This document shows positions 46,523 through 64,000 of a stretch of 64,000 bases of DNA, in pieces (the stretch's first letter is position 1; every line of letters begins with the position of its first letter). Below the pieces are notes generated by a model. That model worked only from the letters and a program-made list of their open reading frames with translations. It did no database searches and was not told the DNA's origin. The stretch spans positions 83,054 to 147,053 of the forward strand of contig JBKAGE010000080.1 in NCBI GenBank assembly GCA_046290225.1. The letters run 5' to 3'. The position numbers and the translations under genes were made by a program. Source of the stretch: Bradymonadia bacterium. GTDB taxonomy: Bacteria; Myxococcota_A; Bradymonadia; UBA7976; UBA1532.

Positions 46523-48802
46523 CTACCCCCCTTGCCATGGTAGGCCTGCAAACTCCTCTGGTTCACAACACAAACAACAAATGGATGCAGTGGTTGATGT
46601 ATCTGAGCCAAAAGAACACAATAACACATCTCTCAGGCAGTCCTGGTTGTTGATGTAGGATAGGACGTCTTCCCAAAGTTGATGCACACGCTTGCAATCC
46701 TTCTCACGGGCAAGATGGAAAATCCGTAAGTGTTCCGGCTCAACAGGAAGCACGTATGTCTGCTCAAGTAGACCACTCGTCGATGTCTGGTCCTTATGAC
46801 GTACAACGCCCCCATGTCGAGCAGCATATGCAAGCGCGCCTGAGCGAGCGACTTCGATGAAAGGGTTGATATGCAGAAGACCTGTTTGAGAATCCCACCG
46901 GAATTGCCCCTTCTTACGCTTCTCACTGACCATTTTATCGGAGATTTTTTGAATTGAGTCGGCTTTAGGCAAACTACGAAAAAGGTGCTCATTGAGGTCG
47001 TTCTTGTCTTTGCGACCACCAAGTAGAATACAAATTGCCTGCTCGACTTTTGGATCCATGTTCCGGCCAGCGCGGCCCGCTCCTTGAAGATATGCAGACA
47101 ATCGTGTGGGGGGCATCACGTGAACCACCCAATCCAACCAAGGCAAGTCGACACCCATACCAAAGGCAGAAGTCGCGACAACGACCTGCAACTGACCGCT
47201 ACGGAGCTTGTCAGCGGCCTCGTTCTTTGCGTCCTTCGGCAAACCCCCATGAAAATGGGTTGCCTGGATACCTGCCGCCCTCAAATGCTCGGCAACGAGT
47301 TCAGCGGAGAGCATCTTCTTTTTGGCGTGACTGCAATATACGAGGCCCCGGCTGACAGGACGTGACTGGATGAACTTGGTCAACCACTTCAGGCGTCTTT
47401 TGTAGCTCGGGATGTTGAACGCGGCATAGCGCAGTTCAGGCCTGTCAGCATGGCTTTGAACCACAATCGGATCCTCAAGCTCCAGGTTTTGCTGCAGTTC
47501 CTGAATATTGTGTGGGGTCAGAGTCGCCGAGAATGCGACGAGAGGAATGTCCTCACCTGCATGGTATGACAACCACTTGCGTAGCTTGCCGAGGCGCAGA
47601 TAATCCTGGCGAAACGTATGGCCCCAGTCGAGAACACAGTGCGCCTCGTCTATGACGATACGTGACGGCAGACGCCAGGAGCACAACGCCTCTCGGAAAC
47701 CCTCACTGAGCAGGAGTTCGGGCGAGACGTATACGATGTGAGTGTAGTCCAGCTCCTGAAATGCTTGAGCTCTCGCTTCATGGTCCATATTGCCTTCAAA
47801 ACGAAGCGCGTCATCTTCACGACGAACCTGGTCTGCCATGAGGGCCAGGAGTGGGGAGACCACCAGGACATAGCCCTCTCCCTCATCGGCCAGGACGCGT
47901 GCAGGTAGGGTGTAACACAAGGTTTTTCCTGTGCCTGTTGGCAACACCACAATCCCGTCGCGACCCTCAAGCACGACCCTGGCAGCCTGCTCTTGTTGAG
48001 CGTTGCGCCAACAGTTGTGCCCTTCGGCAATCAACGCCGCCCCCAGCTCATCCTGTCCCGCTGGAGGGCCATCGGCGTATTGGCGAGATGTGCTCTGCCA
48101 CGCTTCTCGAATCTGATGACGCAGTTTGTTGCCCAGCCTCCGGGTGGTCTCCGGCCACAAGTGCAATGGACCTCGTGGAGACAAGCGCCTCAGGAGATCT
48201 TGCGTCTCCTTTGAGTCATCAATGTCAGGTGCCTCATCCGCCAGAATTCGAAGCAGTACTGGTGGCAGTTCCAACAGCGCAGCCAGCTCAGGAAATTGCT
48301 TCACGAGACTGGCGTGCTCAGGTAGGGACAGGAGCTGACGGGTAGCAGCAATCAAGCGCTCGCCATCATCGCCCCATCGCGGAGGCAGGGTGGCCAGCCT
48401 GTCAGGCAATGCACCCGCCTTCTCAGAGAGCATCTGCCAGATCTGAGCCACTTCATTCGGCGTGGCTCCGTCAGGAGTGACGTGGAACCTGATAGGAAAG
48501 GTGACACCGCTGTCCGTCACCAACCCTCCCAGCCCTCGCATCCGGGATGCCAGCGACTCCAGATCTGCTCCTTCCTCTGGACCATCGGTCAGCAACGCAC
48601 GAAGCTCGGAATCATGTCGCATCTCGAACCATGCACGCGCGCTCAGGTGGGCAGGTACCTTCGAGCGACGTATCTTCGCATCCGGGCTCTCCGTCACCGG
48701 CTTGCCACAGCAGGGAAAAACCCGTGGCCTTTGGCCTTTGATCTCCATCACCACCGAGGTCAAACCGCCACAATATGGGCAGTCGAGAAGGTACTCGCGC
48801 AT
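46523..48802 (-). CDS. RecQ-like SF2 helicase with N-terminal Zn-ribbon extension
   Basis: GGAGGAGG RBS and TGATG overlap at 48802; CPYC...CC; LPTGTGKTLCY, SPLLALM.DQV, YVSPE, IDEAHC..DWGH.FR, TSAFGMGVD, Q.AGRAGR; C-terminal CLR...CCLCC. Confidence 0.9.
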   Translation of the reverse strand: MREYLLDCPYCGGLTSVVMEIKGQRPRVFPCCGKPVTESPDAKIRRSKVPAHLSARAWFEMRHDSELRALLTDGPEEGADLESLASRMRGLGGLVTDSGVTFPIRFHVTPDGATPNEVAQIWQMLSEKAGALPDRLATLPPRWGDDGERLIAATRQLLSLPEHASLVKQFPELAALLELPPVLLRILADEAPDIDDSKETQDLLRRLSPRGPLHLWPETTRRLGNKLRHQIREAWQSTSRQYADGPPAGQDELGAALIAEGHNCWRNAQQEQAARVVLEGRDGIVVLPTGTGKTLCYTLPARVLADEGEGYVLVVSPLLALMADQVRREDDALRFEGNMDHEARAQAFQELDYTHIVYVSPELLLSEGFREALCSWRLPSRIVIDEAHCVLDWGHTFRQDYLRLGKLRKWLSYHAGEDIPLVAFSATLTPHNIQELQQNLELEDPIVVQSHADRPELRYAAFNIPSYKRRLKWLTKFIQSRPVSRGLVYCSHAKKKMLSAELVAEHLRAAGIQATHFHGGLPKDAKNEAADKLRSGQLQVVVATSAFGMGVDLPWLDWVVHVMPPTRLSAYLQGAGRAGRNMDPKVEQAICILLGGRKDKNDLNEHLFRSLPKADSIQKISDKMVSEKRKKGQFRWDSQTGLLHINPFIEVARSGALAYAARHGGVVRHKDQTSTSGLLEQTYVLPVEPEHLRIFHLAREKDCKRVHQLWEDVLSYINNQDCLRDVLLCSFGSDTSTTASICCLCCEPEEFAGLPWQGG

Positions 48803-49512
48803 CAGGCCACCTCCTCCAAAATGCAGTGGTTTACCAGTTCCTCGAACAGCTTCCACACCAGCTGTGCCTGCTGAGCCCCGATTGTGACACCGACCTCAAT
48901 GTTCCGGGACATGCCCAGGTGCGTGAAGTTGGCTGACGTCACGAGACCACGCTGACGGTCTGAAATCAGGAGTTTAGCGTGCAGTTTGGCCATGTCCTTG
49001 GGTGGGTAGGTGTACAGGTGAAGCCGTTCCAGGCTTTCCCTGAATACCCCCCGGAGGTACTTCAACTTCTCGTTCTTCGGGCTTTCCCGGCCTTCCAGAT
49101 CATGGCCAATGATGTTGATGTCTACAGAGTGGGGCAAGCTGGCAAGCTGCTCCCAGCAACCAGCAGCCTTGGTAAGGCTGTATCCGACCAGGAGTATGCT
49201 ACGCCGAGCAGTGCCGATGAGCTCATCGACCACCTGGGATGTGATACGCATCGGAACGCGGATCCCACTCATACCAGTCCACACCATCGAGGGAGTTTCC
49301 CTTGTAGAGGCATAGTGCTCAGCGGCGGCACGTGCCCCCCTGAACGCTGGTAGCAACTCGCTCTTCATAGACAGCTTCAGCGAATCAAGGACCTGCCGGT
49401 GCCCCGCAGACAGGTTTGAGCTGCCTGCTCCGCTCAACTCACGAACAACGGCGTCACGCTCCAGTGGGGACAGCGTCTCTACAAAAGCTGCCAGCTGAGC
49501 CCAGGCAGGCAT
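48802..49512 (-). CDS. drmC: DISARM phospholipase D-family nuclease DrmC
   Basis: VWTG...R.T..V; LHAKLLISD (HxKxxxxD); TSANFT..G...NIEVG; ATG overlaps the drmB stop. Confidence 0.85.
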   Translation of the reverse strand: MPAWAQLAAFVETLSPLERDAVVRELSGAGSSNLSAGHRQVLDSLKLSMKSELLPAFRGARAAAEHYASTRETPSMVWTGMSGIRVPMRITSQVVDELIGTARRSILLVGYSLTKAAGCWEQLASLPHSVDINIIGHDLEGRESPKNEKLKYLRGVFRESLERLHLYTYPPKDMAKLHAKLLISDRQRGLVTSANFTHLGMSRNIEVGVTIGAQQAQLVWKLFEELVNHCILEEVA

Positions 49513-51242
49513 CAGAACGAGTCGCTGAAAAAGCCGGGCATGTCGACCCCGGGCAAGTCCACCAGCGTGGCACGATCCAGAAGGTGGTTCCGATGCTCGC
49601 AGGAGGTTTCCGAGACGAGGACACACGCGTGGCATGCCACACCATTGAGCGTGTCCTTCAGCTTTTCTGGTGCCCGCTCCCGACAGAGAGGATCACCAGA
49701 GCACAGAGTGGCATGGTCGATGGCCCGCTGGAGCAAACCTGGCAATCGATCTGGAGCCCCTTGACGCAGGAGTCCGCCAAGGGAGCCATCAGAATCAACC
49801 GTACCCGTGTAGATCAGAATGCCGTTCTGGCCGGGCTCAGCGTATACGCGCTCCTTGAGTGAAGCCGAGGAATACCCACACTCAAGCGACAATACGTTGA
49901 TGAGCACATGAGCCAGGGTATGGAGCATCACAAAGCCCGGACGACGCTTGACGACAGTCCAGCCCCTCTCCTCACGCCTCTTCTCATCACGAGCGAGCAA
50001 CATGCCAACCCGGTCAAGGACATGTTGGTTCTTCTCCCATGCACCAAGTCGCTCTTCATCAACCTGGAGGAACAGCCCCTCACCAAACAGCTCTGTACCC
50101 GGCACCCAGCTGGTCTTCTCCACCCAGGGCTTGAGAGTAGCGATCTCAGGTCGGTCCGGATCTGGCGCGTCTATGCGTGAGAAGCCAGCAAGTGCTCGGA
50201 CCTCACGAAGCTTCTCCACCAGAACGAGGTTACCCAGATGAAACCCGTCTGGGATGTCGCCGGGCCGGGTTCGAAAATCGCCCTGAAGCATGCCTTTGGG
50301 CGGTGTACGAAGGGCGTTGTACTCCTCATGGCGGTAGTTGGTCGGCGCCTTGAAGCCTGACAGCCGCTGCTCAATGGCAGTGTCGATTTCATCAGCATCA
50401 AACGAGTACTTCGCCTGTAGCACCGAGCGGGCAACCTGCCGGTAGATCTCTGGGTTGTCTTCAAGGACGCTCAGGGTCTTCCAATGTGCATCCAACGCCT
50501 TCTCTATCGGATCCGAGAAAGGTGGGATGGACAGCTGGCTGACGACGGAGGAGAAGTACAGGTTGGTAGCACCTCGTAGACTCCCGCGAGGGCCGTCTTC
50601 TCCGCCGAGCAGTGTGCAGTCCTCATTCGGCTCATCAGGTACCCAGGGTCTCCGCCCACTACATTTCCAACCACGGAGGCCATCCTTACCCAATGCACCT
50701 GACAGGCTGCGGTGGGCACCGCAACTCTGGCATCGCACTCTAAGGTCCGACAGAGTTGCGGCAGAGCCACTGCTGGTGAGAGTCAGAATCGGATCATCGG
50801 ACGCTGAGCAATCCTTCCCTTTATGTACCCACCAGCTCCACGGAAAATCGTCAATATGCCCTTTGGGGCATACGGTGATGAGGCGAGCTGGATAAGTGCG
50901 CACGTTCCGGCACTTCGGACTGGTACACATCGGCCCCCGTTTGGCGCGTATCTTCGCCGGCATACGCGAGAGGTCCACGATTCTTCGGCAAGATGGGCAA
51001 ACATGTTTGTCGGGAAACGGTACAACTGGGACATCCAGTCCACCCCCCTCACATTTTGGAGTTTGGAAACTGGCGACTTCCAAACGTTCCTGCAGGAAGC
51101 GCTCCTGGATCTCCCGGCCCTCGGGCCAGTAGTCGATGGCCGTCACAATCGCGGAATCATGACGCAGATCTACAATGGCACCAGGGCCGAAGGTGGTTAC
51201 CAGTTGAGAGGGCCGAATACGGCCGATGTCAGGGCGCTTCAC
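49512..51242 (-). CDS. drmB: DISARM DUF1998 protein DrmB
   Basis: IRPSQLVTTFGPGAIVD; C..GH.DDFPW; HTLAH.LI; CS.DP.C...ACHAC....ETSCE..N..LDR. Confidence 0.92.
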   Translation of the reverse strand: MKRPDIGRIRPSQLVTTFGPGAIVDLRHDSAIVTAIDYWPEGREIQERFLQERLEVASFQTPKCEGGGLDVPVVPFPDKHVCPSCRRIVDLSRMPAKIRAKRGPMCTSPKCRNVRTYPARLITVCPKGHIDDFPWSWWVHKGKDCSASDDPILTLTSSGSAATLSDLRVRCQSCGAHRSLSGALGKDGLRGWKCSGRRPWVPDEPNEDCTLLGGEDGPRGSLRGATNLYFSSVVSQLSIPPFSDPIEKALDAHWKTLSVLEDNPEIYRQVARSVLQAKYSFDADEIDTAIEQRLSGFKAPTNYRHEEYNALRTPPKGMLQGDFRTRPGDIPDGFHLGNLVLVEKLREVRALAGFSRIDAPDPDRPEIATLKPWVEKTSWVPGTELFGEGLFLQVDEERLGAWEKNQHVLDRVGMLLARDEKRREERGWTVVKRRPGFVMLHTLAHVLINVLSLECGYSSASLKERVYAEPGQNGILIYTGTVDSDGSLGGLLRQGAPDRLPGLLQRAIDHATLCSGDPLCRERAPEKLKDTLNGVACHACVLVSETSCEHRNHLLDRATLVDLPGVDMPGFFSDSF

Positions 51243-54200
51243 AGGTCCGGCTCCATACCCTTGGGTGAATGAAAATAGAACTCTGCAGAGGGCTCTACCT
51301 CACGCAGGGAAGTCAGGGTCGGCCACCCATCACCACTCCCTGGTGCAGGCTCCATGAGTACAGGCTTCGGCTCCCCTCCTGGAGGGGCCATCGTGCCGTA
51401 TTGAAGGTCCGGATGACTGCCTGCCCGTTGTCTCCATTGATCCAACAGCCCTTCGGCCATGAAGGTGACGTCTGAGCCAGACTCGCCGGTCATGGCCGCT
51501 CGGCTCTGCAATATCTTGATGATTCGATCAGCAATGCCCGCCGGCAGCTTCTTGATCTGCTTTGCATCCTTCCCAGCAGGCAAGCCGCCATCCAGATGGC
51601 GAGCAAGAGCAACGATCAAAGCATGTAAACCTCGATTGAGCGCCTGAGGCGCAAATGGGGTGACACTGGTTGCCTCGACGAACTGGTAGAGCGATTGGTG
51701 ATAGCTGCGAAACTGCTCGTAGTGACTGATGTCTCTAGGGCGAGTCCACCGATACAGGCTGCACACAAGACCCGGATGACGACGTCCTACGCGAGAGGTG
51801 GCCTGAATGTACTCGCTGGTGGTTTTGGGCTGGCCCGCAACCACCATCATTCCCAAGCGATCGATGTCCACCCCAACCGAAATCATGTTGCTGGCCAGCA
51901 CCACGTCCTTCGGAGGAATCTCCCCATCGAGGGTCTGCTCGAGCGCAGTCAGCGCCTGGGGAACCTCCGTGGAGGTGAGACGGCTCGTAAGCTCTTGGAT
52001 GCGGTCGCGATAAATCGCTCTACCACTACTCCGATCATCAGTTCTCAACCCCCTGAGGCGATCGTTGACGTCGTCCTCACACAAGGGAATGGCGCCCGCG
52101 AGCTCACGAATGGAGTTGAAGTACCCAACCAGGGTCCACCACGGATCTACATCCTCGCCCTGCTCGAGCAGCAGCCAAGCCTTGTGGAGGAGTGCAGCAT
52201 AGACACGCAGCAGGGCAGTCTTTCCTGACTTACCCACAGGGTTGACGCCAAAATAAAGACGCCCAGGCATGTCCGAGCGCTCCCGGGCGAACCAGGAGTC
52301 CCGAGCATCGAGACCAGGTGGTGGAAATTGGGAGACTCGACGAGTGAACAACCCCCTGCACTGCTCATCTGCATGCCGGATGGTGGCGGTAGACGCCACA
52401 TAACGTGGTCGAACTCCATCGTCTGTGGTGGCCAGAACATCCAACACCGTTTCATACAGCCCGGTGATGGTGCCCAGTGGCCCCGAGATGAGGTGCAATT
52501 CATCCATCAGGATGAGTGATGGTGGCGCTGTAGGTCTCACACCACGTCCGAACAACTGCCGTGTGTCCTCCACCCAGGGCAGCTGAGCGAACTTGTCCAC
52601 CGTTCCGATGAGCAAGGCAGGCCGGGTCGAGTAGATCTCCTCATCAGTCACGACAACAGGCAGGCCAGAGTCGGCATCGCTCGCGCTACCGTGAAAGTCA
52701 CATGCCCTGTTCGGACAGGTGATGAGCATGCGACCCGCGCGCTTGTTGATGTGGTAGTCCTTCAACTCAATCGGAGTACCACACCATGGGCAATGACTGA
52801 ACTGCACTGGGTTGGCCGATGCCGGAGTACGACCGCGACGGCATTCACGAAGCGCAAACTCCGCTCCCCTGACGTTCTTTGGAGTTGCCCGTGTACCCAC
52901 CCACAAGCCGATGCGGAAAGGCTCGCTCCCCCATCGTCCCGGATCTGAGCGCCGGACGACCTCGCAAGCGCAGATGAGCGCAGTAGCACGTTGGAACTGC
53001 TGCAAAGTAAGCAGCCGAAGTGTGTAGCGCATGATTACGGTGATGCCAGCACCCTCAGCGATCTCATCTCGCAGCCGACGTAGGGCCATGGTGAAGGCAG
53101 CCACACCAAGGTAGGCCTCCGTCTTGCCACCACCGGTCGGGAACCACAGGAGATCAACAACGTCTCGATCCGGGTGAGCGGGATCAACCGTGGCAGGGAT
53201 GTTCATCAGCAAGAAGGCCAGCTGGAACGGACGCCAGCTTCCCTCGAGCTTCAGCTCGTTATCTTCTCCTCGTCGCCTTGCGAGGCTCCACCCCGAATGG
53301 GCGCGCTGAAGCAGCATGACCCTGCATGCAAAACGAAATGCCTCTCCTACTTCAGGATCCTGCAAGCACAGCAGCCCGTCGCGCATGCGCTTGAGAGCCG
53401 TTGTACACTGCAGCACGTGACCCTCCGCAGTCTCCTTGAGAGCCGGAATGACATTTGGCAGTTTTTCCGTCTGCTGCTCTTCAATCCAGTCCTCATAGAG
53501 TTTCAGCAAGGGCTCGATGCTCGATATCGCCTCCGCTGCTGAGGCGTTTGCCAGGAAGCCCATGCTCAGGCACTCCAGTCCAGAGTCCTTGGGCAGGATG
53601 GGGTGTACTTCCCAGAAGGGCATGATCTCAGTGCGCAGTGCTGTAGCCGACTGGCCATCCTCAGCATCCCACTCAGCAGCGCAGTTGTGGCCGCGGGCAA
53701 ACTCCGGCATGCCCGAGTAGATGAGGCGAGTGGATCTCTCCTCATCTGACAGGCTCTGGATGTCCGCTTCATGGCTTCTGTCGAGAAAGGCCGCCGCCCC
53801 CCCTGCGTTGATCTCCAAGCGGGGCTGGAAAAGGCAGAGTGAATCATTCCGCCCGGACTTTGGCTCTTCGGAACGATTGGTCAGAAAGAGGCTGACGGTC
53901 GTGATGTCGCCAGCCCTTCTTGCAATCGCGTCCACGGTGACGTCGATCGCCACCGTGTGCTTACTAGTCCCAGGGGTCAGGGGCAAGGACAAGCTGCCGT
54001 GTACCGGGGTCCGCTGCCACGCACGCTGACCATCATCGCTGGTGGAGGTGTAACGCCCCCCTTCCCAGCTGACATCCAGGTGCGTGATGTCACCACGCAC
54101 CAAAAACGTAAGTCCTATGGCGCCAGGCAATGGAATGCGGCGCAAATCAGCAGCACTGTTTACGCCATCGTCTCCATCGTCCCCCATACCCAGACCCAAG

Positions 54201-54364
54201 GTGTCGTTTGCCTCTTCGGCAGGGTGAGCACCACCAGGGTAGAGAATTCCGGTCAGATAAGCGCTGGTAGGAGGATCTGCAATGAGCTCATCTTCAGCAT
54301 AGGGCCCCATCAGGTCCTGACGGGAGAACGACATCAACTCGTTTCTGATCTCAACAGGAGTCAT
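51239..54364 (-). CDS. drmA: DISARM helicase DrmA
   Basis: Y.TGILYP; GHNCAA.W; WRPFQLAF; WFPTGGGKTEAYL; MRYTLRLLT.QQF.R; DELHLI.GPLG; ISVGVD; EYIQATSRVGR. Confidence 0.93.
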   Translation of the reverse strand: MTPVEIRNELMSFSRQDLMGPYAEDELIADPPTSAYLTGILYPGGAHPAEEANDTLGLGMGDDGDDGVNSAADLRRIPLPGAIGLTFLVRGDITHLDVSWEGGRYTSTSDDGQRAWQRTPVHGSLSLPLTPGTSKHTVAIDVTVDAIARRAGDITTVSLFLTNRSEEPKSGRNDSLCLFQPRLEINAGGAAAFLDRSHEADIQSLSDEERSTRLIYSGMPEFARGHNCAAEWDAEDGQSATALRTEIMPFWEVHPILPKDSGLECLSMGFLANASAAEAISSIEPLLKLYEDWIEEQQTEKLPNVIPALKETAEGHVLQCTTALKRMRDGLLCLQDPEVGEAFRFACRVMLLQRAHSGWSLARRRGEDNELKLEGSWRPFQLAFLLMNIPATVDPAHPDRDVVDLLWFPTGGGKTEAYLGVAAFTMALRRLRDEIAEGAGITVIMRYTLRLLTLQQFQRATALICACEVVRRSDPGRWGSEPFRIGLWVGTRATPKNVRGAEFALRECRRGRTPASANPVQFSHCPWCGTPIELKDYHINKRAGRMLITCPNRACDFHGSASDADSGLPVVVTDEEIYSTRPALLIGTVDKFAQLPWVEDTRQLFGRGVRPTAPPSLILMDELHLISGPLGTITGLYETVLDVLATTDDGVRPRYVASTATIRHADEQCRGLFTRRVSQFPPPGLDARDSWFARERSDMPGRLYFGVNPVGKSGKTALLRVYAALLHKAWLLLEQGEDVDPWWTLVGYFNSIRELAGAIPLCEDDVNDRLRGLRTDDRSSGRAIYRDRIQELTSRLTSTEVPQALTALEQTLDGEIPPKDVVLASNMISVGVDIDRLGMMVVAGQPKTTSEYIQATSRVGRRHPGLVCSLYRWTRPRDISHYEQFRSYHQSLYQFVEATSVTPFAPQALNRGLHALIVALARHLDGGLPAGKDAKQIKKLPAGIADRIIKILQSRAAMTGESGSDVTFMAEGLLDQWRQRAGSHPDLQYGTMAPPGGEPKPVLMEPAPGSGDGWPTLTSLREVEPSAEFYFHSPKGMEPDL

Positions 54365-57300
54365 GCTGTCTCAGCCCCCAGGATCCGAGCCAGCTCCGAC
54401 TGGCCGAAGGTAAGCACGGTCGTAGAGCCTTCTTGAGCGGACTGCTCCCCACTGTCGTTCTTGCTCATGTCCCAGACCACCCCCAACCCCTTGAGGGGCT
54501 GGATGGTGAACTGGCCCTTGACAATATCTGCGCGGAGTCTGTCAGGCAGCTCGCAGCCAATGGCCCAGGCATCGTCCAAAGCATGGGCCAGGGCCATGGA
54601 CCACAACCCCTGATCCAATCCGTCAGAATGAGCATTCTTGAAGATTTCGTCGAGCACTGACACGCCATTGCTGAGGCGAACCACGGTCGAACTCACAGCA
54701 CCGCCTTCTGACGAGAACCGGCTCTCACACACAAGTACATCCAGGGTGGTCTTGCCATACTCGTGTTTAACGACGACCCGCATCATGTCCGGGTGATCTT
54801 TGATGAACCAGTCTGAGTGCGGATCCAGACCAACCCAGAAACAATGACCGTTGGTCTTGTGCGCTTGGTCTGCGTAGAAGCGCAAGGCGTGGCGACCAAG
54901 CAGCTCTGATGCAAAGGCAATACGATCGGTGGCCTTAAGCGCAAGTGCTGGTGCGAGCTTGCCAGTCCGGTTGGCCACCTGATTGACCATGGTGTCAATC
55001 TGAGACTCATCGAGGTCCTTGGCCTGACTCCTGAGCATGGCCCGAAGGTTTCGCTTCAGCGGATCCTTGACCACATCGGAGGCTACAATGAGGCTGTAAT
55101 CACCGTTCTTCCCAAGCCCGGTGGATACATGCAACACTTCCGGTACATTGGACATACCGGTAAGCTGACGTCGAGTGATGCCAATGTCGATGATGGCAAC
55201 TTGAAGCGCAATTTGGCGAAGCCTCTCAAAATGCTCGGCGGTTTCCCCGATCTCACCATGAAGCTCGAGGTACTCAAGTACGTCTGCAGCCTTGCTGGAG
55301 CGGCCCTTGTTGAAAGATCTGGCAGTGGCATCAGCCCATGCATAGAGCATGCGGTCCGGTGTCGGAGGTCGTAGATCGATAACCAAGTCTGTCTGATTGC
55401 CACTTGCAGGTTTCTGAGGCCGCTCCAAAACCGGATCTGACTCGCCATCAGGTAGCAAGATAGGCTCGGACCTAACCTTGAACTGTCGCTCACCGCTGAA
55501 CAGGAAGGGCACGATGGCAATATCGAGCAGCACCTCCGAGTGATTCCCCTTACCGACAAGGCTGTCAGGCAGCTTCTTGCTGTTGCCAGTTATATGGTGA
55601 CGCACTTCCAGGAGAGGAAAATGCGAGTGCCCGCCGGTCTTCATGAGAGTACGGGCATGCCCCTCCTCTACTAGGCTGTCCACTTCTACAGCACCTTCAG
55701 GCGCCACCAAGTGGAGTGTCAGCCGTGTATCTGCGCGCTTGCGTGAGAACTGGCGGATGAACTCCCGGGCCATCCCGGTCTTCTCACCCATCAGCAAAAC
55801 ATGAAGGCCCGCCTGCTTGTGCGGCCGGGTTTCCACATACTCACTGGCAAGTTGCACGAGAGTGCGAACTGCGGCTGGATCCAGATCGGACGTGATGTGC
55901 GACTGAGAATCCTGCCGTTGGTAAGCCTCGCACCATCCACACTCTTTGACCGGTACATGAATCTGCCCGGCCTGAATGGAAAGAATCGGAGGGTAGCGAT
56001 GAGGTGACCAAGCCTTCATATGCTGCAGCATGAAGGAAAGATCCCGGTTGGAAGCATCCAGGATATTCTTCAGCTGACTCTCGATGTACTCGCACATACG
56101 GCTACGCCATGATGTAAACCACCGAAGTCGAAGCGGGTGGCACCCCATCATCCACACCCAACCTTGGACATCCTGCTCAGCTTCTTGCTGAACACAATCC
56201 ATGCTTCTGAGCATGGTGAGTGTGTCTGCATCATCAGAGGAGAGAGCCTGAACCAGCCGCTCCTGCCACGCCGTGATGTACTGGATGACGTGATCGTGTT
56301 GCAGTCCGGTTTGAGACAAGAGCTTCAGCCAACGTGCTCGAGTGTCAGCCCATTCACCTGCGAAGTCGCTCTTGGCTGCCTGCATGCTCTCAACGGTATC
56401 TACCTCACGCAAGTCGGCCTGGGTGCTCCAGAGGCCTGGCAAGGATCTCCACCTCTCGTTGCAGATGGCACCAATCCAAAGCTGGATGAGACCGGTGTCC
56501 TCCTTCTCGGGTGTCCACCGAAATGTGCGCTTTCCACCAGTACCAATATCGAGAGTGATGGATAGCTCCCGGGCTTCATCTATATGCTCGTCATAATCAC
56601 CATCGTCGGATGAATCCGACTCATCCGACATCCATGGAGTTCCATCAACTAGGAAAGGCTCAATCTCAACAGTGATTCCATCTTTAGATATGCGACTTTT
56701 GAGTTCATCCAGTGCGGAGCCATACAGGAACGCAAAAACACCTCTGAGAATATTGCTTTCAGTCCCAACGGTGATTGAAAGCCTGTCAGGGCTACTGGAA
56801 TTGGCCAGGAGACCATCCAAAGTCTGGATAATGCCATACAATGGCTCAGTAAAGAGGCTCTCTTTAGGGACGAGGCGCTTTACCTTGTTCTGTAGTACCC
56901 GGCTCAGCCGATGAAATACTTCTGGCGTCTCCATAAGTTCAATGGCCGCCTCCGCATTTTTCTCGTTAAGGTCTGACTCCCAGTCACCATCTTTGTAGAG
57001 CTTTAAAGGTTTCTTGTTGTTCGGGATATTCGTCAGAAACTGGTGAATTGCGAAGCCCAGCTCCGCCCCTTTTATCGATTCGATGCAACGCTTGAATTGG
57101 TCAAAGTCTACTTCGTCAAGAGCAGCCTTCTTGTTGTTATTCTCAAGAAATTCGCGAGTCAGATCCTTAAGACGCCTGTTTTCCTCAGGGTCTTCATGAA
57201 AGATCGCAGTACGCAGCCGCTCGATAATTTGATCCGGATCTCGCTCAGCTCCGCTGGGACGTCGGAGAGACGACCCGTAGATCAGTTGGCGGAACTCCCG

Positions 57301-57984
57301 GAGGTAGGCAGACTCTTTGTCGTCAACCAGCGATATGGCAAGGCGGTGATAGCGGAAGAGGTCAAGGGCCGGAAAGCTGGCCTCCAAAATCTGGATTCGT
57401 TCATACCTGGAGGGTGTAGGCGTCCAGTCCAGCTTCGCCCATTGTTGGGAAATAGAGGTCAGGAAAGCTGCAAAGCTACGCAGGGAAATGGTCTCAACAT
57501 TGTTGTGCCCTCGAACAATCCGGGCCACATCTCTTCGCCAGGGCTCTACACTTTCTGCGGTCATATCTGGGTGGATGGTCCGCAAGAGATATTCCCAATG
57601 CTCATTGTCGAACAGCGAACGATCTCTGAGAGGGAACATTGCCCGAGTAGACTGGGCGTCGGTCTCAGCACTGGTCTGAAAGTACACGAAACCGTTCGTG
57701 TTGTGGTTTCGACCATAGGTCGCGGTCAGGCCGTTGGCCGTGAAAGCCTTGGGATCGAGCAGATCCTCCAGCAAGGGTACTGGTGCGCCACTGACCATGA
57801 CCAGTGCCGGGTTGTCCCCATCTTTGTCCAGACCTGCAGTTTTAAGAGCTTCTGCAATCTCGGCATCGGTGAAGCTCGACACTCGAATCTGAGGTTGCTG
57901 ATTCTTCAGAAGCTGTGCCTTGAGCAACAGGCCCAAGCCCTTGCCAGCGACAATGGTCGTGTTGACTGAGTACTCAGGCTTCAT
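54361..57984 (-). CDS. DndH/DptH-like large protein lacking the C-terminal HerA/FtsK ATPase
   Basis: Third gene after the F- and G-like genes; HPLRLRW motif; late PD...E-S-R nuclease-like motif; no convincing C-terminal Walker A/B. Family call is from context and recalled motifs. Confidence 0.55.
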   Translation of the reverse strand: MKPEYSVNTTIVAGKGLGLLLKAQLLKNQQPQIRVSSFTDAEIAEALKTAGLDKDGDNPALVMVSGAPVPLLEDLLDPKAFTANGLTATYGRNHNTNGFVYFQTSAETDAQSTRAMFPLRDRSLFDNEHWEYLLRTIHPDMTAESVEPWRRDVARIVRGHNNVETISLRSFAAFLTSISQQWAKLDWTPTPSRYERIQILEASFPALDLFRYHRLAISLVDDKESAYLREFRQLIYGSSLRRPSGAERDPDQIIERLRTAIFHEDPEENRRLKDLTREFLENNNKKAALDEVDFDQFKRCIESIKGAELGFAIHQFLTNIPNNKKPLKLYKDGDWESDLNEKNAEAAIELMETPEVFHRLSRVLQNKVKRLVPKESLFTEPLYGIIQTLDGLLANSSSPDRLSITVGTESNILRGVFAFLYGSALDELKSRISKDGITVEIEPFLVDGTPWMSDESDSSDDGDYDEHIDEARELSITLDIGTGGKRTFRWTPEKEDTGLIQLWIGAICNERWRSLPGLWSTQADLREVDTVESMQAAKSDFAGEWADTRARWLKLLSQTGLQHDHVIQYITAWQERLVQALSSDDADTLTMLRSMDCVQQEAEQDVQGWVWMMGCHPLRLRWFTSWRSRMCEYIESQLKNILDASNRDLSFMLQHMKAWSPHRYPPILSIQAGQIHVPVKECGWCEAYQRQDSQSHITSDLDPAAVRTLVQLASEYVETRPHKQAGLHVLLMGEKTGMAREFIRQFSRKRADTRLTLHLVAPEGAVEVDSLVEEGHARTLMKTGGHSHFPLLEVRHHITGNSKKLPDSLVGKGNHSEVLLDIAIVPFLFSGERQFKVRSEPILLPDGESDPVLERPQKPASGNQTDLVIDLRPPTPDRMLYAWADATARSFNKGRSSKAADVLEYLELHGEIGETAEHFERLRQIALQVAIIDIGITRRQLTGMSNVPEVLHVSTGLGKNGDYSLIVASDVVKDPLKRNLRAMLRSQAKDLDESQIDTMVNQVANRTGKLAPALALKATDRIAFASELLGRHALRFYADQAHKTNGHCFWVGLDPHSDWFIKDHPDMMRVVVKHEYGKTTLDVLVCESRFSSEGGAVSSTVVRLSNGVSVLDEIFKNAHSDGLDQGLWSMALAHALDDAWAIGCELPDRLRADIVKGQFTIQPLKGLGVVWDMSKNDSGEQSAQEGSTTVLTFGQSELARILGAETA

Positions 57985-59404
57985 ATCGCACCATACGGGT
58001 TGAGTCGGAGTATGACTGCATCAGGCCAAGGCCATTGAGCGTGTCGGACAGGTGTTGTGTATTCTCTTCGAACAAGCTCAGGTTCGCTTCTCGATCCAGC
58101 TTGCATTCACGTGCTGCAGCTTCGTCGATCACAAAGCCGAACTGCTTGTACAGCCAGTCTTCCACAAAGCTCTCAAAGGTCATCTCGTCCTGACCAGTGG
58201 CAAGGACCAGTGCTTCCAGCAAGGGCTCACTGAGGACAAACCGTCGACTTCCCTTCAGTGCGTTGGACAGTCCGATGGCTGGTGCTCCTCGCGTGAACCA
58301 AGCGACGAACTGCTTCAGGTTGCGCCTCGGTACATTTTGGTCTGGATCGTTGTTCACCTCTTGCAAGGCGGCAAGCAGCATCTTGTTGATATTCACGAAT
58401 GAGCGGTGGGCAGCACCTCTCACTTCATTCCGCCGGTTACCCGCTGGAGAGCAATCGATGACGACTTGGTGCTTCTTAGCCTCCAGATCAAAACCAAGCT
58501 GTGCGGTATCAGCCCCGCTCGAGTCAGCCGTCTCTACTTTGGCTTTCGCCCTGCCAATCATCAGGACCGTCAAGCACAACGGAATGATGTGGAAGAGTGC
58601 ATCGAGGCGGACAACCTGGGGCGCGCGCTTAGAGGTCACGATTGAGTGTACGCAGTGGCGGAGCAGTTCCTCCCAGTGATCTCCGCCCTCCTGGCCAGGC
58701 CTGCCCCTTCGCCACTCAATCACCTTCTTCGCGAGAGTGTCATTGATCTCCGTATTGACAGTCTGCCCCTTGCACCCATTCCTGGCCTCGTACACCTTGT
58801 GCTCGTGCTTGTCGAAGACGTTGAGGAGCATTCCGGTGAAATGGTCCCGCTCGAAGATCTCTCGGAAGGCCGCTCGCGTTTCATTCAGTCGCTGCTCGTT
58901 CGGGTCCGAGCAGATGATTGCGTATGCAAGAGTGCCAGCTCCTCGGTAGTAAATACGCTCTTTAATGGGCCTCTTGCCCTTATGACGGGCATCCCAGTGC
59001 ACAAGGCCCTTGCCGTAAGGCACGAAGTGGGAACCAGACCAGCTGGTTCCGGCCCTGCCGGTGTTGGGGATGTGTACTTTCAGACCTCGTAGGAGCTCTT
59101 TGACCGGTGCACGCACATCGTCGTCAATGACCTCATCCAACGCTTGCAGCTCGCCTTGCTCGAAATCATCGAATGCCATTCGGCGTGCAGCGAGGTAGCC
59201 GGGTGCGGTAACCCTGATGTGACCGTTCTCATCCGGACCGGGCATGACCTCTTCATCGTCGGGGTGCCCTCCCACGAGGGCAAGGAACTCCAGAGAAGAA
59301 TAGAACCCACGGTTGTCGGAGTGGAAAACACCACCCCATAACCTGATAGAGAGTTCGGTTGCTGCCGTCTTCTTGTTGGTGCTCTTTCGTGTTGTACTTG
59401 GCAT
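57974..59404 (-). CDS. DndG/DptG-like protein
   Basis: N-terminal LWG..F...LEFL; C-terminal F..N...L...L..LGL...YSD...V resembles the DptG tail; overlaps the next gene by 11 nt. Confidence 0.55.
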   Translation of the reverse strand: MPSTTRKSTNKKTAATELSIRLWGGVFHSDNRGFYSSLEFLALVGGHPDDEEVMPGPDENGHIRVTAPGYLAARRMAFDDFEQGELQALDEVIDDDVRAPVKELLRGLKVHIPNTGRAGTSWSGSHFVPYGKGLVHWDARHKGKRPIKERIYYRGAGTLAYAIICSDPNEQRLNETRAAFREIFERDHFTGMLLNVFDKHEHKVYEARNGCKGQTVNTEINDTLAKKVIEWRRGRPGQEGGDHWEELLRHCVHSIVTSKRAPQVVRLDALFHIIPLCLTVLMIGRAKAKVETADSSGADTAQLGFDLEAKKHQVVIDCSPAGNRRNEVRGAAHRSFVNINKMLLAALQEVNNDPDQNVPRRNLKQFVAWFTRGAPAIGLSNALKGSRRFVLSEPLLEALVLATGQDEMTFESFVEDWLYKQFGFVIDEAAARECKLDREANLSLFEENTQHLSDTLNGLGLMQSYSDSTRMVRYEA

Positions 59405-59418
59405 TACAGCTTCCCCAC

Positions 59419-61167
59419 TCAGTCCAGGGTAACCACACCATCTTCGACGGTGATCGAGATCAGACGACCCTGGTACAGCACCTGGGCGGTATCGATGTTC
59501 TCTTCCTCAGAATCTTGAGCCACCTTGAGGAGGAAGTTCGTAATGCGGCGGGCTTCCCGAGCAAAGAAGGTCCGAGAGACAAGACCGGATCCACATCGGC
59601 AGAGAAACTCGAAGTCCCACAGGCTCAAACCAATCCGATGCTTGCGCACGACGAGCCAGAGACGCCTTGGCACTGCATCCAGGGCACTGCGGCTTTCGTC
59701 GCCAGCGGGCTTTGGAGGCTCGTCTGGTTCGAGTGTGACCTCCTTTGCCGGGACCTGCATGGCGATGACTGCAGTAGCCGAGCGTGCCCGCAGGCTGATG
59801 GGATCCACAATGTAAAGACCACCCCCATCAGGTCGGGGAAGGTATTGCAGGCGATGCAACCCTTCGATGAGGCGGTTGATGATCTTCTTCCTGGCAATTT
59901 TTTTCAGGGTGCCAGCCAACAGGCTTTGGAACGCCTGCACATGCTCGAAGCCAGCAATGGGAATGGGGTTGTCCGGAGTATACTCGGTCTCGAGCAAATG
60001 GTTCCGCCTCAGGATGGCAAACGAGCGTTCAAGGATACTGGACTCGTGTTTGAGGTGGTTCTTCCCATCAATATCAAATTCGGTCGGGCTCAAATGGGTG
60101 TGCAGGTCCACCTTGTGACGCTTCGTGATGTGCGTCCTGTCAGGGGCTGTATTAGGAATGCATTGCCGGCCCTCAGGAGTGACCAAGTAGTCGTCAATCC
60201 GCCTACTGGCACTCCATGCCGGATCCAACAGCTTCAACCGATTGAAGAGACCATGAGAACGAATGAAGGAAGCCTGTGCGCCCTCTCCAAACAGGGTGGA
60301 GGCATGCGAGTAGACGGATGTGTCTGTAGACCCCCTCTTCATATTATGGACATCCTTGCACTCAAGATTGCCGGTCAACAGCCAAGCCAGATGAATCATG
60401 ACCTGCCGAATGGTCACCACCTCACCAAGTTGCTCTACAATCTCGTAGAGGCGCCTGATGGACTCAAGCCGCTGCTCACTACGTGCAAGTATGGAACGGT
60501 TCTGGTAGATGGGACATAGATCCTGCGCACTACACTCCTGACAGATACGCCACTTTCGGCCATCCAGCAGCTGTTTGAGGAGCGTCACCATGATGCCACT
60601 CGGCAAGGAAACCATCTGCCAATTAAGATTGAGCACCACGATGCCTGGATCCGGCTCAATGTCGTTCTCATGCAGTGCTTTGCGAATGCTCCCGGCTAGG
60701 CTCGTCTCACTCAGAATGTCACTGCTGAGCATGGCCCGTAGCCTCCCCTCATTGACACATGCGATCAATGGATATGGAGCAGTAATGGACTCTCTGAGCA
60801 GTTGAGCCGCATTCTGTGGATCTGTCTCGCTCAGATCCTTGTGGATAGCGAGTGTGTACTCATCATAAGTGCGAGGCTTACCATTGCACTCATTCTGAAG
60901 CACCGATGACAAGTCCCCTTTGGCTCCAAGGCGTTTGAGCAGCTGGCGCACTAAATGGGTTTTGCCATGACCAGCATCACCGGTGAGGATTACAAGGGAA
61001 GTAGGATTCCCTGTCTGGAGCCTCTTGGTCAGCCAGAGCTCGGCTGCAGTATCAGCGTGAACGAACGATTCTCGCTGATGTTCTTCGTAAATCTCTGCAT
61101 GGCTCGGATTAAAGGGGATGTAGCCGTGAAGTCGTTCCACTGCACGGTTCACCTTCATGTCACCCAT
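59419..61167 (-). CDS. DndF/DptF-like P-loop NTPase
   Basis: LVILTGDAGHGKTHL Walker A; KDLSE; NEGRL; C..C...CPI..N; LDP; ~580 aa, as in DptF-like proteins. Confidence 0.68.
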   Translation of the reverse strand: MGDMKVNRAVERLHGYIPFNPSHAEIYEEHQRESFVHADTAAELWLTKRLQTGNPTSLVILTGDAGHGKTHLVRQLLKRLGAKGDLSSVLQNECNGKPRTYDEYTLAIHKDLSETDPQNAAQLLRESITAPYPLIACVNEGRLRAMLSSDILSETSLAGSIRKALHENDIEPDPGIVVLNLNWQMVSLPSGIMVTLLKQLLDGRKWRICQECSAQDLCPIYQNRSILARSEQRLESIRRLYEIVEQLGEVVTIRQVMIHLAWLLTGNLECKDVHNMKRGSTDTSVYSHASTLFGEGAQASFIRSHGLFNRLKLLDPAWSASRRIDDYLVTPEGRQCIPNTAPDRTHITKRHKVDLHTHLSPTEFDIDGKNHLKHESSILERSFAILRRNHLLETEYTPDNPIPIAGFEHVQAFQSLLAGTLKKIARKKIINRLIEGLHRLQYLPRPDGGGLYIVDPISLRARSATAVIAMQVPAKEVTLEPDEPPKPAGDESRSALDAVPRRLWLVVRKHRIGLSLWDFEFLCRCGSGLVSRTFFAREARRITNFLLKVAQDSEEENIDTAQVLYQGRLISITVEDGVVTLD

Positions 61168-61742
61168 CGATGCCCCCAAGCAGGCTGTCGTATTGAAATT
61201 CTAGGAATTGATGTAGTTCTCACGAAAACGACCTCACAATTAACCCAAAACAAGTCAACACCGCAAGATGCAGCTCAACGAGAATTGAGTCAGACAGCAG
61301 CATGGAGCCTAAACTGCAATTTGCCCAGAGCATTGCACCACCTCTGCCCTGTTGACCCTCTTGCTCACCTGCTTGACCTTGGGTATCGGTCCCACCTAGC
61401 AGCTCTTGTCCACGCCTTGGGGCCTATACCGTTCAAACACCTAACCTTATTAAATTCTCCCACCACAAAGCTGAATCCACTCAGCGGGAGTATCCGCCTC
61501 GGATGCCTGGAATTGGCTGGCAAGATGGCACATTGGCCATGGATGTGGAACCAAGACATCTATCGACAACCAACCATCACACATCTGCAGTCACTTACGA
61601 GTATCAACATAACACCTACCCCCAAACACTCCACTCAACAAATCACTAACAAGCTCATTGCATAACACATAACAAAAGAACATACCAAATCAAAAGCAAA
61701 ACAATCCCGCAGCCTTCGTATATCTCCCCCCATAAACGACTA

Positions 61743-63833
61743 TTAAACAGCCTCTCGAAGCTCAGTCGTACAACCTACAGCTGAGTACACCAGACTTTTC
61801 AAATGCTCTGCCAACGCAAAGGCGAACAATGGGGGTACAGCATTGCCGATCTGACGGTATCCAGGATTCATAGTGCCCGCAAACCGAAAGCTGTCAGGAA
61901 ACGACTGTAGTCGTGCCGCTTCCCGAACACTGATGACCCGAGCCTGCTCCCCATCAAAGTGGATGTGACTGTAGGTGTCCTTGCCCAGATGGGCCATCAA
62001 GGTACGGGCAGGCTCATCAGGATGGACCTTACGCCACTTGTTGGGGAACTTCCCTGGATCATATGGCGGAACGAACCCTCTCTTGATGGCAGGCAGATCC
62101 AGCAGTTGCTCGGCAAAGTCGGCAACGATCCAGCACATGATCTCGATAGCGAAGCCGACTTCGTACTCAGGGCCCCAGAACATCATATGAGATACACAGT
62201 TACTGTCGGCCTCTTCCAACCACTTCAACATCTTGCGAGCATCATCATGGTCGCTTGTACTTAACAGGCTACTTGAAGGTACGCTCCAGTCCCCAGGCAT
62301 GGTTCGCATACCAACTTGCCATGCCTTACGAACAGACAACGAGGCGCTCACGCGCTTTAGAGACTGACGCCCTACCTGAAGAAGTAGCTCGCAGCCCTCC
62401 TTAGGGGAGGACAGCATTGCAGTCAGAAGACGCTCAACCCGATCGTAAGTAGAGAGCAGGGTCTCTGGCAGACTCGCAGGCGGTGCATGCTCTTCCTTCA
62501 GCTTGATCTGAGACAGGGCTGTCCTGACACGCTCCCGAGCTCCAGCAACCACACCAACCTGCTCAGTAAGCCCCCGCCAGCGCTCAAGCATCTCCTTTAT
62601 CAACTCTTCTAACTTGAGGGTTTCAGAAGACTTCTTGAGCCAGCCTCGGTAATCTGCCAGCTCATTCATCAGCGCCTTCGACTCTGAAGTCTCCTCAGTT
62701 AATGGGGTGCTTACCCTCAACTCATTCAGGAAACTCTCAAGCTTCTCAAGCGCCAGCTGGTAGACTTGCGGGTACTGGTGGTTGTGTTCCATATCTCGGA
62801 ACAAGCGGAAGTCACGCCAAGTCAACGCCCGGGTCACATGAGCATTCAGGAGGTCTTTGGAAGGGTTCACTTCGAAGCCTGGCCAGCCGTGCATGTGATC
62901 CCTAACATAGGCTGAGCGGTCTGTAGCAGTGTCGTAGTTGATATCTCGCCGCCCATCAAGTGGGGTAGCCCCCTTCTTCATCTCTCCCGTCAGATGGCTC
63001 TTGATGGCTGGCAGATCCACCAACGCCTGTCGGGCCGTTACTGGGCCAAGTGCATCTGCGGCGGGGCATGGTGTTGGCAGAAAGTGTGAGCTGGTATCAT
63101 TTAGATCAACATGCTTCAGGGCAACGTTTCTAGAGCCCTTGTAACCAGACGGAAACTCCACCTTCCGTCCAGGCACAGGGAAGCTGACTTCTACGCCCAG
63201 TTCCTCATGAATCGCCACCAGGATGAAGCGCTCTCGCATCTGTGGCACACCATAACTCGCCGAGTTGAGTAGCGTGTACCGGCACTGGTATCCCAGTGAC
63301 TCAAGCACTTCTGCAATCTCCTCACCGAGATTGTGTCCGCCAAAGTTCATGACATCCGGCACATTCTCCATCAGAAGGGCGACAGGCTGCAGATACTCCA
63401 CAAATCTCAAGTACGGCTCGTAGAGCTGAGCTCTCGGATCTTGCTTATAAGCTTCTGGGTGTTGGTGAATCTCGCGCAATTTTGCTCGGCCAACCCGTGT
63501 AAAAGCCGGGCATGGCGGACCACCAATGAGGAAGTCGACCACTGCTTTGGGCTCCTCGTAGCCCCACGATCGTAGAAGGTCCTCAGGGTTCGTTTTGGTA
63601 ATATCGCGGTGCCTAGCGTGCTCTTCATAGAGTTTGGGATCTGAGATGTGCTTATGAAAGTTGAGGGCATGAGCTTCAGCAGCCTTCCTATCAAGCTCTA
63701 CACCACCAACAATCTCACATCCCGCCCTTTGAAAACCCAGCGACAGCCCTCCACACCCAGCAAAAAGGTCCAACACCCGTGGTGCGTTTCCTTGCCGGAA
63801 GCGCTCGATTTTAGAAGAGAGAAACTGAAACAT
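61743..63833 (-). CDS. dcm: C5 cytosine DNA methyltransferase with ~200-aa insertion
   Basis: Motif I DLFAGCGG, IV GGPPC, VI ENV, VIII Q.RER, IX SVREAARLQSFP, X QIGNAVPP. Confidence 0.93.
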   Translation of the reverse strand: MFQFLSSKIERFRQGNAPRVLDLFAGCGGLSLGFQRAGCEIVGGVELDRKAAEAHALNFHKHISDPKLYEEHARHRDITKTNPEDLLRSWGYEEPKAVVDFLIGGPPCPAFTRVGRAKLREIHQHPEAYKQDPRAQLYEPYLRFVEYLQPVALLMENVPDVMNFGGHNLGEEIAEVLESLGYQCRYTLLNSASYGVPQMRERFILVAIHEELGVEVSFPVPGRKVEFPSGYKGSRNVALKHVDLNDTSSHFLPTPCPAADALGPVTARQALVDLPAIKSHLTGEMKKGATPLDGRRDINYDTATDRSAYVRDHMHGWPGFEVNPSKDLLNAHVTRALTWRDFRLFRDMEHNHQYPQVYQLALEKLESFLNELRVSTPLTEETSESKALMNELADYRGWLKKSSETLKLEELIKEMLERWRGLTEQVGVVAGARERVRTALSQIKLKEEHAPPASLPETLLSTYDRVERLLTAMLSSPKEGCELLLQVGRQSLKRVSASLSVRKAWQVGMRTMPGDWSVPSSSLLSTSDHDDARKMLKWLEEADSNCVSHMMFWGPEYEVGFAIEIMCWIVADFAEQLLDLPAIKRGFVPPYDPGKFPNKWRKVHPDEPARTLMAHLGKDTYSHIHFDGEQARVISVREAARLQSFPDSFRFAGTMNPGYRQIGNAVPPLFAFALAEHLKSLVYSAVGCTTELREAV

Positions 63834-64000
63834 CGATTCTACCCAGATACCCTGAAGCGACAGTAGCCCAAAGGAAACCTAGTGGCTAGAGTCAAGGGGG
63901 TTGAGGTGGACCCCATTGGTTGGACAGTAAATCAGCGATCCTTATGTGACAACTGGAGTTGCCACCCGTCGCCGAAATATGCGCTCGCGGGCGTGGCGTA

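Follow-up and report, generated by a model that had tools for sequence, protein, structure and literature searches.

An eight-gene island at a contig end

The window analysed here is a 64,000-nucleotide (nt) stretch from a Bradymonadia bacterium (GenBank assembly GCA_046290225.1, contig JBKAGE010000080.1, here C80, positions 83,054 to 147,053), and our subject is a putative defence locus of eight open reading frames (ORFs), all called on its minus strand between positions 46523 and 63833. From upstream to downstream these are a 5-methylcytosine (5mC) DNA methyltransferase, three genes F, G and H of the SspFGH/DndFGH type, drmA, drmB and drmC of the DISARM system, and a RecQ-family helicase. 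Judged by its sequence, the locus is a hybrid, rare and conserved, between two defence families already known. Window positions and model matches are as follows (aa, amino acids).

61743 to 63833, minus strand: 5mC DNA methyltransferase, 696 aa (PF00145, 2e-56; TIGR00675 over its cut-off)
59419 to 61167, minus strand: F, SspF/DndF-family P-loop protein, 582 aa counted from the ATG of P0001 (PADLOC SspF, 2.4e-53)
57974 to 59404, minus strand: G, SspG-family protein (PADLOC SspG, 6e-22; 63% identical in the related locus L084, see below)
54361 to 57984, minus strand: H, SspH/DndH-family scaffold, 1207 aa (PADLOC SspH, 9e-26)
51239 to 54364, minus strand: DrmA, superfamily 2 (SF2) helicase, short form (NF038325, 1078 bits, cut-off 950)
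49512 to 51242, minus strand: DrmB, DUF1998/MZB (NF038324, 499 bits, cut-off 240; PF09369)
48802 to 49512, minus strand: DrmC, phospholipase-D-family (PLD) nuclease, 236 aa from an overlapping ATG (PADLOC DrmC, 2.6e-27; HxKxxxxD motif)
46523 to 48802, minus strand: RecQ-family helicase, 759 aa (TIGR00614 over its cut-off)
63903 to 64000, no strand assigned: 98-nt repeat, 70 nt upstream of the methyltransferase start, found again where contigs C52 and C42 end

F and G are separated by 14 nt, and from there on the genes overlap, by 11 nt at G/H, as ATGA at H/drmA, as GTGA at drmA/drmB and as TGATG at both drmB/drmC and drmC/RecQ. The eight-gene block has a GC content of 55.8%, whereas the genome has 64.4% and the window outside the block 64.9%. 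A first-pass annotation, made from the letters of this DNA alone, had described eight co-directional genes with these junctions in a lower-GC island, and the ORF calls, our reading of the junctions and the base composition bear this out. It had also counted the methyltransferase as part of one co-translated unit, which does not hold: the gene lies outside the overlap chain with a gap of ∼0.58 kb to F, and its membership in the translationally coupled chain was therefore rejected. On the coding strand the gap contains no ORF longer than 64 aa wholly inside it; a 236-aa plus-strand frame overlaps it, and no promoter consensus was found when one was looked for there. The window ends with C80 itself, at the repeat and 167 nt upstream of the methyltransferase, which is where the visible locus stops. 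The repeat is probably a terminus, of IS3-type appearance, of an insertion sequence present in multiple copies, and it may affect expression of the locus.

The trio is an SspFGH-family module with an altered H

F, G and H are three adjacent genes homologous, in that order, to SspF, SspG and SspH. The trio had been annotated as DndFGH-like, of which the FGH family membership stands while the nearest PADLOC models are SspF, SspG and SspH and not DndF, DndG and DndH; the DndF model matches F weakly (0.004). F has an intact Walker A motif, an Asn-type Walker B motif and a Cys4 insert, in agreement with the description of DndF in section 20 of PMC10853773, and these motifs are kept in all close relatives; the F profile found no match by sequence among solved structures. 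G would, by analogy with DndG, be a winged-helix DNA binder. Three other identities of the trio were rejected: as DrmE, because PADLOC assigns SspF/G/H and none of the eight proteins matches a DrmD or DrmE model (the absence of both from the locus had already been noted in the first pass); as Dpd, because F, G and H have no significant Dpd match; and as MADS, because none of the eight proteins reaches a MADS cut-off, with mad8 matching F at 0.014 on the P-loop and MAD7 matching G at 2e-4 (20 bits, cut-off 410).

In the model of H residues 590-1207, which has a predicted confidence (pLDDT) of 87, the stretch of about aa 673-973 adopts a Rossmann methyltransferase fold (Z 13.7, root-mean-square deviation 3.6, 173 residues aligned). 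A Foldseek search with the model gave no match at E ≤ 0.001. Residues ∼974-1207 form an alpha/beta domain, assigned from motifs and secondary structure and not from a fold search of its own, that carries PD-(D/E)xK-type residues with E-S-R in place of E-x-K. The same domain order, methyltransferase fold and then nuclease, is given for DndH in section 21 of PMC10853773. H stops directly after the nuclease domain and has neither a Walker A motif of the usual form nor an FtsK Pfam match. Its homology to 74 long relatives (>1000 aa) runs to a median position of aa 1197, and those proteins extend a median of 434 aa further, with a C-terminal Walker A motif in 73 of the 74 (the remaining one is cut by a contig end); the two that were scanned both carry FtsK, and the FtsK part of the long relatives matches the mad8 model. 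In the Atlas, H matched clusters that were unnamed or of the FtsK family, none with DNA context. A separate H-type FtsK gene was sought in the genome, the sole match being on another contig at 36%. According to section 22 of PMC10853773, the motor domain of DndH has been exchanged repeatedly.

The short form is found in 4/4 close H proteins, which span 1205-1212 aa (1207 in the window, 1211 in L084, 1212 in P0113 and 1205 in P0114), and all four have Arg at the nuclease E-x-K position, which is Lys in 74/74 other H proteins. All 78 proteins keep the acidic residues E1027, D1054, D1066 and E1087. The four short H frames are intact, are 49-61% identical and share one end point; the methyltransferase-fold domain is their best kept part (58-75%), and the nuclease domain is kept like the rest of the protein (47-57%). 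The nuclease is thus altered but not clearly dead. A motor-less H with Arg for the nuclease Lys fits, as something we infer, the first-pass proposal that DrmAB, DrmC and RecQ supply those activities. Co-folding of H 660-1207 with DrmA 1-372, one domain pair among many possible, scored 0.03 against a mark of 0.32, which counts neither for nor against contact between the two.

The DISARM core and the appended RecQ

Downstream of H the DISARM core is present as consecutive drmA, drmB and drmC genes. DrmA matches Serratia DrmA (PDB 7S9V) at 2e-200 with Walker A, DELH and motif VI intact, and it falls outside a group of eight class I DrmA proteins from relatives; DrmC scores 118 bits against NF038319, just below the cut-off of 133. 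The RecQ opens with a clade-specific N-terminal region of ∼250 aa, in which two Cys pairs are followed by helices. This region matched just two other proteins, both 50-51% identical overall, had no match in the Atlas, and is possibly a docking domain; the predicted structure of the RecQ was unusable (pLDDT 45). The protein is distinct from the other RecQ-like gene of the genome, which lies on C12 (35%).

Class II DISARM consists of drmMII, drmE and drmABC. The window locus resembles it, and the DrmAB structure (PDB 7S9V) described in PMC9142583, in its drmA-drmB-drmC core, intact motifs and 5mC methyltransferase; it differs in having F-G-H in the place of DrmE or DrmD, in the appended RecQ, and in a methyltransferase whose PADLOC scores with generic type II models (7e-74) equal or exceed its score with DrmMII (4e-62). 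It differs from class I in that drmD and drmMI are absent upstream of drmA. Across the genome, which is 99% complete in 83 contigs, DrmD gave nothing over its cut-off and DrmE gave 0 matches, the DrmE search finding nothing over the cut-off in the controls either. A control set of 18 drmB regions from the taxonomic class to which the bacterium belongs, several of them cut by contig ends, showed none of F, G, H and RecQ; among the proteins selected for scanning, DrmD occurred together with DrmMI in seven regions and DrmMI without it in one.

Some of the regions examined have arrangements of their own. In the class I DISARM locus at L130:2818-18225, drmMI and drmA have a Hachiman HamB gene between them. 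At L135:978-17000 the DNA ahead of drmABC contains genes for a 5mC methylase and a UvrD-like helicase, MzaC-like and PDC-M33A-like genes and two small genes, and this stretch, which lacks drmD, represents another front end on the DISARM core. At L138:4330-14746 a single 1756-aa frame has both DrmA and DrmB matches, and the upstream ORFs of 614 and 951 aa match no PADLOC model.

The gene order recurs in close relatives

A single metagenome match, L084, carries F-G-H-drmA-drmB-drmC in the order of the window, at identities of 71, 63, 61, 70, 70 and 52%, respectively, and shares its overlap types at G/H, H/drmA, drmA/drmB and drmB/drmC; the DNA ends inside drmC, of which the start is seen. Of the longer order, from the methylase to RecQ, that the first-pass annotation had proposed to look for, this part recurs, and the similar identities across F-G-H and drmABC indicate that both halves have diverged about equally. 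Reads on L084, from runs that may be its source, gave no variants, no joints and no sequence past its end. Additionally, the longest contig given is 21933 nt for P0002 (an F), for P0113 (an H) and for P0128 (one of the two RecQ relatives); the three probably lie on one contig, which suggests a third full locus.

The seven close F proteins form one well-supported group on a long branch (1.44). Outside it, no close F relative was found in 30 other genomes of the order, among 400 genomes sampled from the phylum or in viral contigs; plasmids contained distant F relatives alone and gave no match to H. For five weak F relatives from the phylum, the DNA fetched contained no drmA or drmB.

The methyltransferase is less constant. 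The L084 enzyme is 38% identical to that of the window and lies on the opposite strand, separated from F by a GHKL/histidine-kinase gene; the gap upstream of F in the window gave no protein and no evident DNA similarity when compared with that of L084. In L084:5103-8618 the methylase is divergent from this neighbour, a 696-aa protein directly upstream of F that begins with a GHKL ATPase and has an ATPase domain of the histidine-kinase type at its C terminus. The window enzyme has its catalytic motifs and an insert of ∼190 aa (about aa 370-580) in the variable region that is absent from 4/4 aligned relatives. It was the sole 5mC methylase found in the genome with three queries, and counts of palindromes indicated no methylated site. 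We regard it as a loosely attached candidate for the self-marking enzyme.

5mC methyltransferases accompany distant SspFGH-like loci

A scan of species genomes covered the best 80 of 105 F relatives (L003-L082), at 25-40% identity and many of them in cultured Streptomyces and proteobacteria. Around these 80, G was found at 76 loci, an ORF of the H cluster at 75, of the methylase cluster at 68 and of the Vsr cluster at 52. Fifty-nine were well flanked, with at least 5 kb upstream and at least 2.5 kb downstream of H; a methylase lay within 3 kb in 54 of these, on either side and either strand, and Vsr in 41 (for L081 the methylase distance was mis-measured in this count, the gene being adjacent). 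Loci with similar F proteins tend to have similar methylases (Spearman 0.60 across 63 loci, 0 of 500 permutations; 0.30 in a 29-locus subset, 5 of 500), a correlation that shared host ancestry can also give. The methylases of the window and of L084 are both most similar to FGH-linked enzymes, those of L016, L027 and L033.

Phosphorothioation genes were seldom found in the genomes of this family, with a strong dndC match in 2 of 50 of the genomes (one over the cut-off) and DUF4007 in none of the 50. Together with the methylase counts, this indicates that a methylase beside FGH without phosphorothioation genes is widespread and not a peculiarity of the window; among the distant relatives it is the norm. 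In the window's genome no phosphorothioation modification gene was found either: dndD gave 0 matches, DUF4007 gave 0 in a search that had no positive control, and none of three PAPS-reductase matches fits the SspD or DndC models. Among the 80 loci drmAB was seen at one (L025), where it lies upstream, parted by other genes and not after H, and RecQ was seen at none in the DNA examined around each. We found no description of a 5mC- and Vsr-linked SspFGH family in full-text searches, which mostly did not reach subscription journals.

Relation to known systems

By its gene content the locus is strictly neither SspFGH, since the motor is missing, nor DISARM class I or II, since DrmD and DrmE are. 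It shares with SspABCD-SspFGH, as presented in PMC8092258, and with DndFGH, as presented in PMC10853773, the F-G-H order, the homology and the domain order of H as far as the nuclease. Unlike in those systems, H lacks the FtsK/HerA domain, which the relevant parts of both papers treat as constant, the nuclease Lys is Arg, drmABC-recQ follows the trio, and the neighbour is a 5mC methylase in a genome where no phosphorothioation genes were found. With MADS, as described in 10.1101/2023.03.30.534895, the locus would share a methylation-based self mark; MADS is an eight-gene operon with an N6-adenine methylase, and the passages on it contain no DISARM helicases.

Dpd (7-deazaguanine) systems combine the RecQ-like helicase DpdF with a DUF1998-helicase and PLD genes. 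The locus has the same combination, but its RecQ scores 180 bits against a DpdF cut-off of 550, DrmA is only weakly DpdJ-like (23 bits, cut-off 800) and DpdH reaches 12 bits against 450. No description of FGH joined to drmABC was found in the full-text literature, of which the supplement of PMC10853773, which may bear on novelty, was not covered; DISARM and RecQ are absent from the main text of that paper.

Proposed mechanism and alternatives

The best explanation, to which we give a probability of roughly 0.5, is a co-inherited hybrid restriction-type defence locus, in which a 5mC-associated FGH module has had its motor, and perhaps its nuclease, swapped for DrmAB(C) and RecQ. It would have arisen from the widespread SspFGH-like branch that adjoins a 5mC methylase, often with Vsr, and not phosphorothioation genes. 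In one rare clade H would have lost its C-terminal FtsK translocase and changed its nuclease Lys to Arg, and the operon would have been joined by overlapping stop and start codons to drmA-drmB-drmC and a dedicated RecQ. The methylase would mark host DNA, and F-G-H would read DNA without the 5mC mark, which it may nick or merely hold. According to PMC9142583, the DNA bound by DrmAB of Serratia is single-stranded or has 5′ overhangs, ATP hydrolysis is needed, and DrmAB did not co-purify with DrmC; in the same manner DrmAB would load on such DNA here and unwind it instead of FtsK, RecQ would extend the unwinding and DrmC would cut. That the parts form one physical machine and that 5mC is the self mark is what we infer. 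A fuller version holds that F-G-H and DrmABC-RecQ act as a single machine guarded by 5mC, both catalytic parts of H having been replaced by the DISARM helicase and PLD nuclease, that it is a third DISARM front end, and that it is the tip of an undescribed, widespread SspFGH-like family reading 5mC and not phosphorothioate; this we put forward as tentative.

Several observations weigh against the hybrid. Unrelated systems stand directly upstream of drmA elsewhere, namely Hachiman in the L130 region, Septu in L139 and a Mza-like block in L135, and adjacency to drmA is common. The kept acidic residues and the 47-57% identity of the nuclease domain would allow this domain to be active, and section 25 of PMC10853773 argues that DndFGH is a standalone system. 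Two loci alone are read as DNA, the third being suggested by the shared 21933-nt figure; the short-H clade could have a single origin, in which case a single event, and not repeated ones, accounts for the two H changes and the acquisition of drmABC. The methylase of L084, at 38% identity, is not the gene found in the window, and Vsr was searched for in the window's genome and not found.

One alternative is that two independent systems sit together, a motor-less but self-sufficient, cutting FGH and a DISARM core (drmABC and RecQ) that has no front end of its own, with the overlaps reflecting nothing but compact packing. The other systems found upstream of drmA are the chief support for this arrangement, to which the intact acidic residues of H can be added, and a review (PMC12707154) states that restriction is not abolished by single dndF, dndG or dndH deletions. 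We nevertheless consider it unlikely, as motor loss is seen in this clade alone, drmA directly follows H in both loci read as DNA, and the genome offers no H-type FtsK gene beyond the distant match. According to PMC8092258, SspFGH damages unmodified DNA and needs all three genes, and deletion of sspF, sspG or sspH each abolished protection in Vibrio. Alternatively, the hybrid may be real with 5mC not its self mark, the machine sensing either phage products or DNA structure, as single-stranded DNA or 5′ overhangs met by the trigger loop of DrmA, and the methylase being an exchangeable neighbour. This agrees with a methylase that stands 0.58 kb off and outside the overlap chain and is replaced and inverted in L084, with the discrimination by DNA structure reported for Serratia DrmAB in PMC9142583, and with the statement in PMC10853773 that DndFGH is often decoupled from modification. 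We find it rather improbable, given that 54 of the 59 well-flanked relatives keep a methylase on either side or strand, which makes loose placement normal for the family, that the methylases of both loci are nearest to FGH-linked enzymes, and that the window enzyme is the only 5mC methylase detected in the genome. Finally, FGH could be a decaying remnant, cut by a DISARM block inserted in the 3′ end of H and hitchhiking without function; domain loss together with an altered catalytic residue is a usual sign of decay, and the F clade is on a long branch, but four intact H frames of conserved length and end point, a methyltransferase-fold domain as well kept as it is, and F motifs preserved in all close relatives make this very improbable.

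Implications

The locus suggests that defence systems swap working parts, and would amount to a natural swap experiment. Two open questions meet in it: how the DISARM core is directed to foreign DNA, and what FGH reads where phosphorothioation genes are missing. If FGH gives DrmAB its recognition, the front-end slot of DISARM, otherwise held by DrmD/DrmMI or DrmE, would be open to exchange of recognition modules, and an unrelated SF2 helicase would be able to stand in for the FtsK motor of H. Whether SspFGH-like proteins can take 5mC as their self mark could be tested directly in the distant relatives, many of which are in cultured Streptomyces and proteobacteria.

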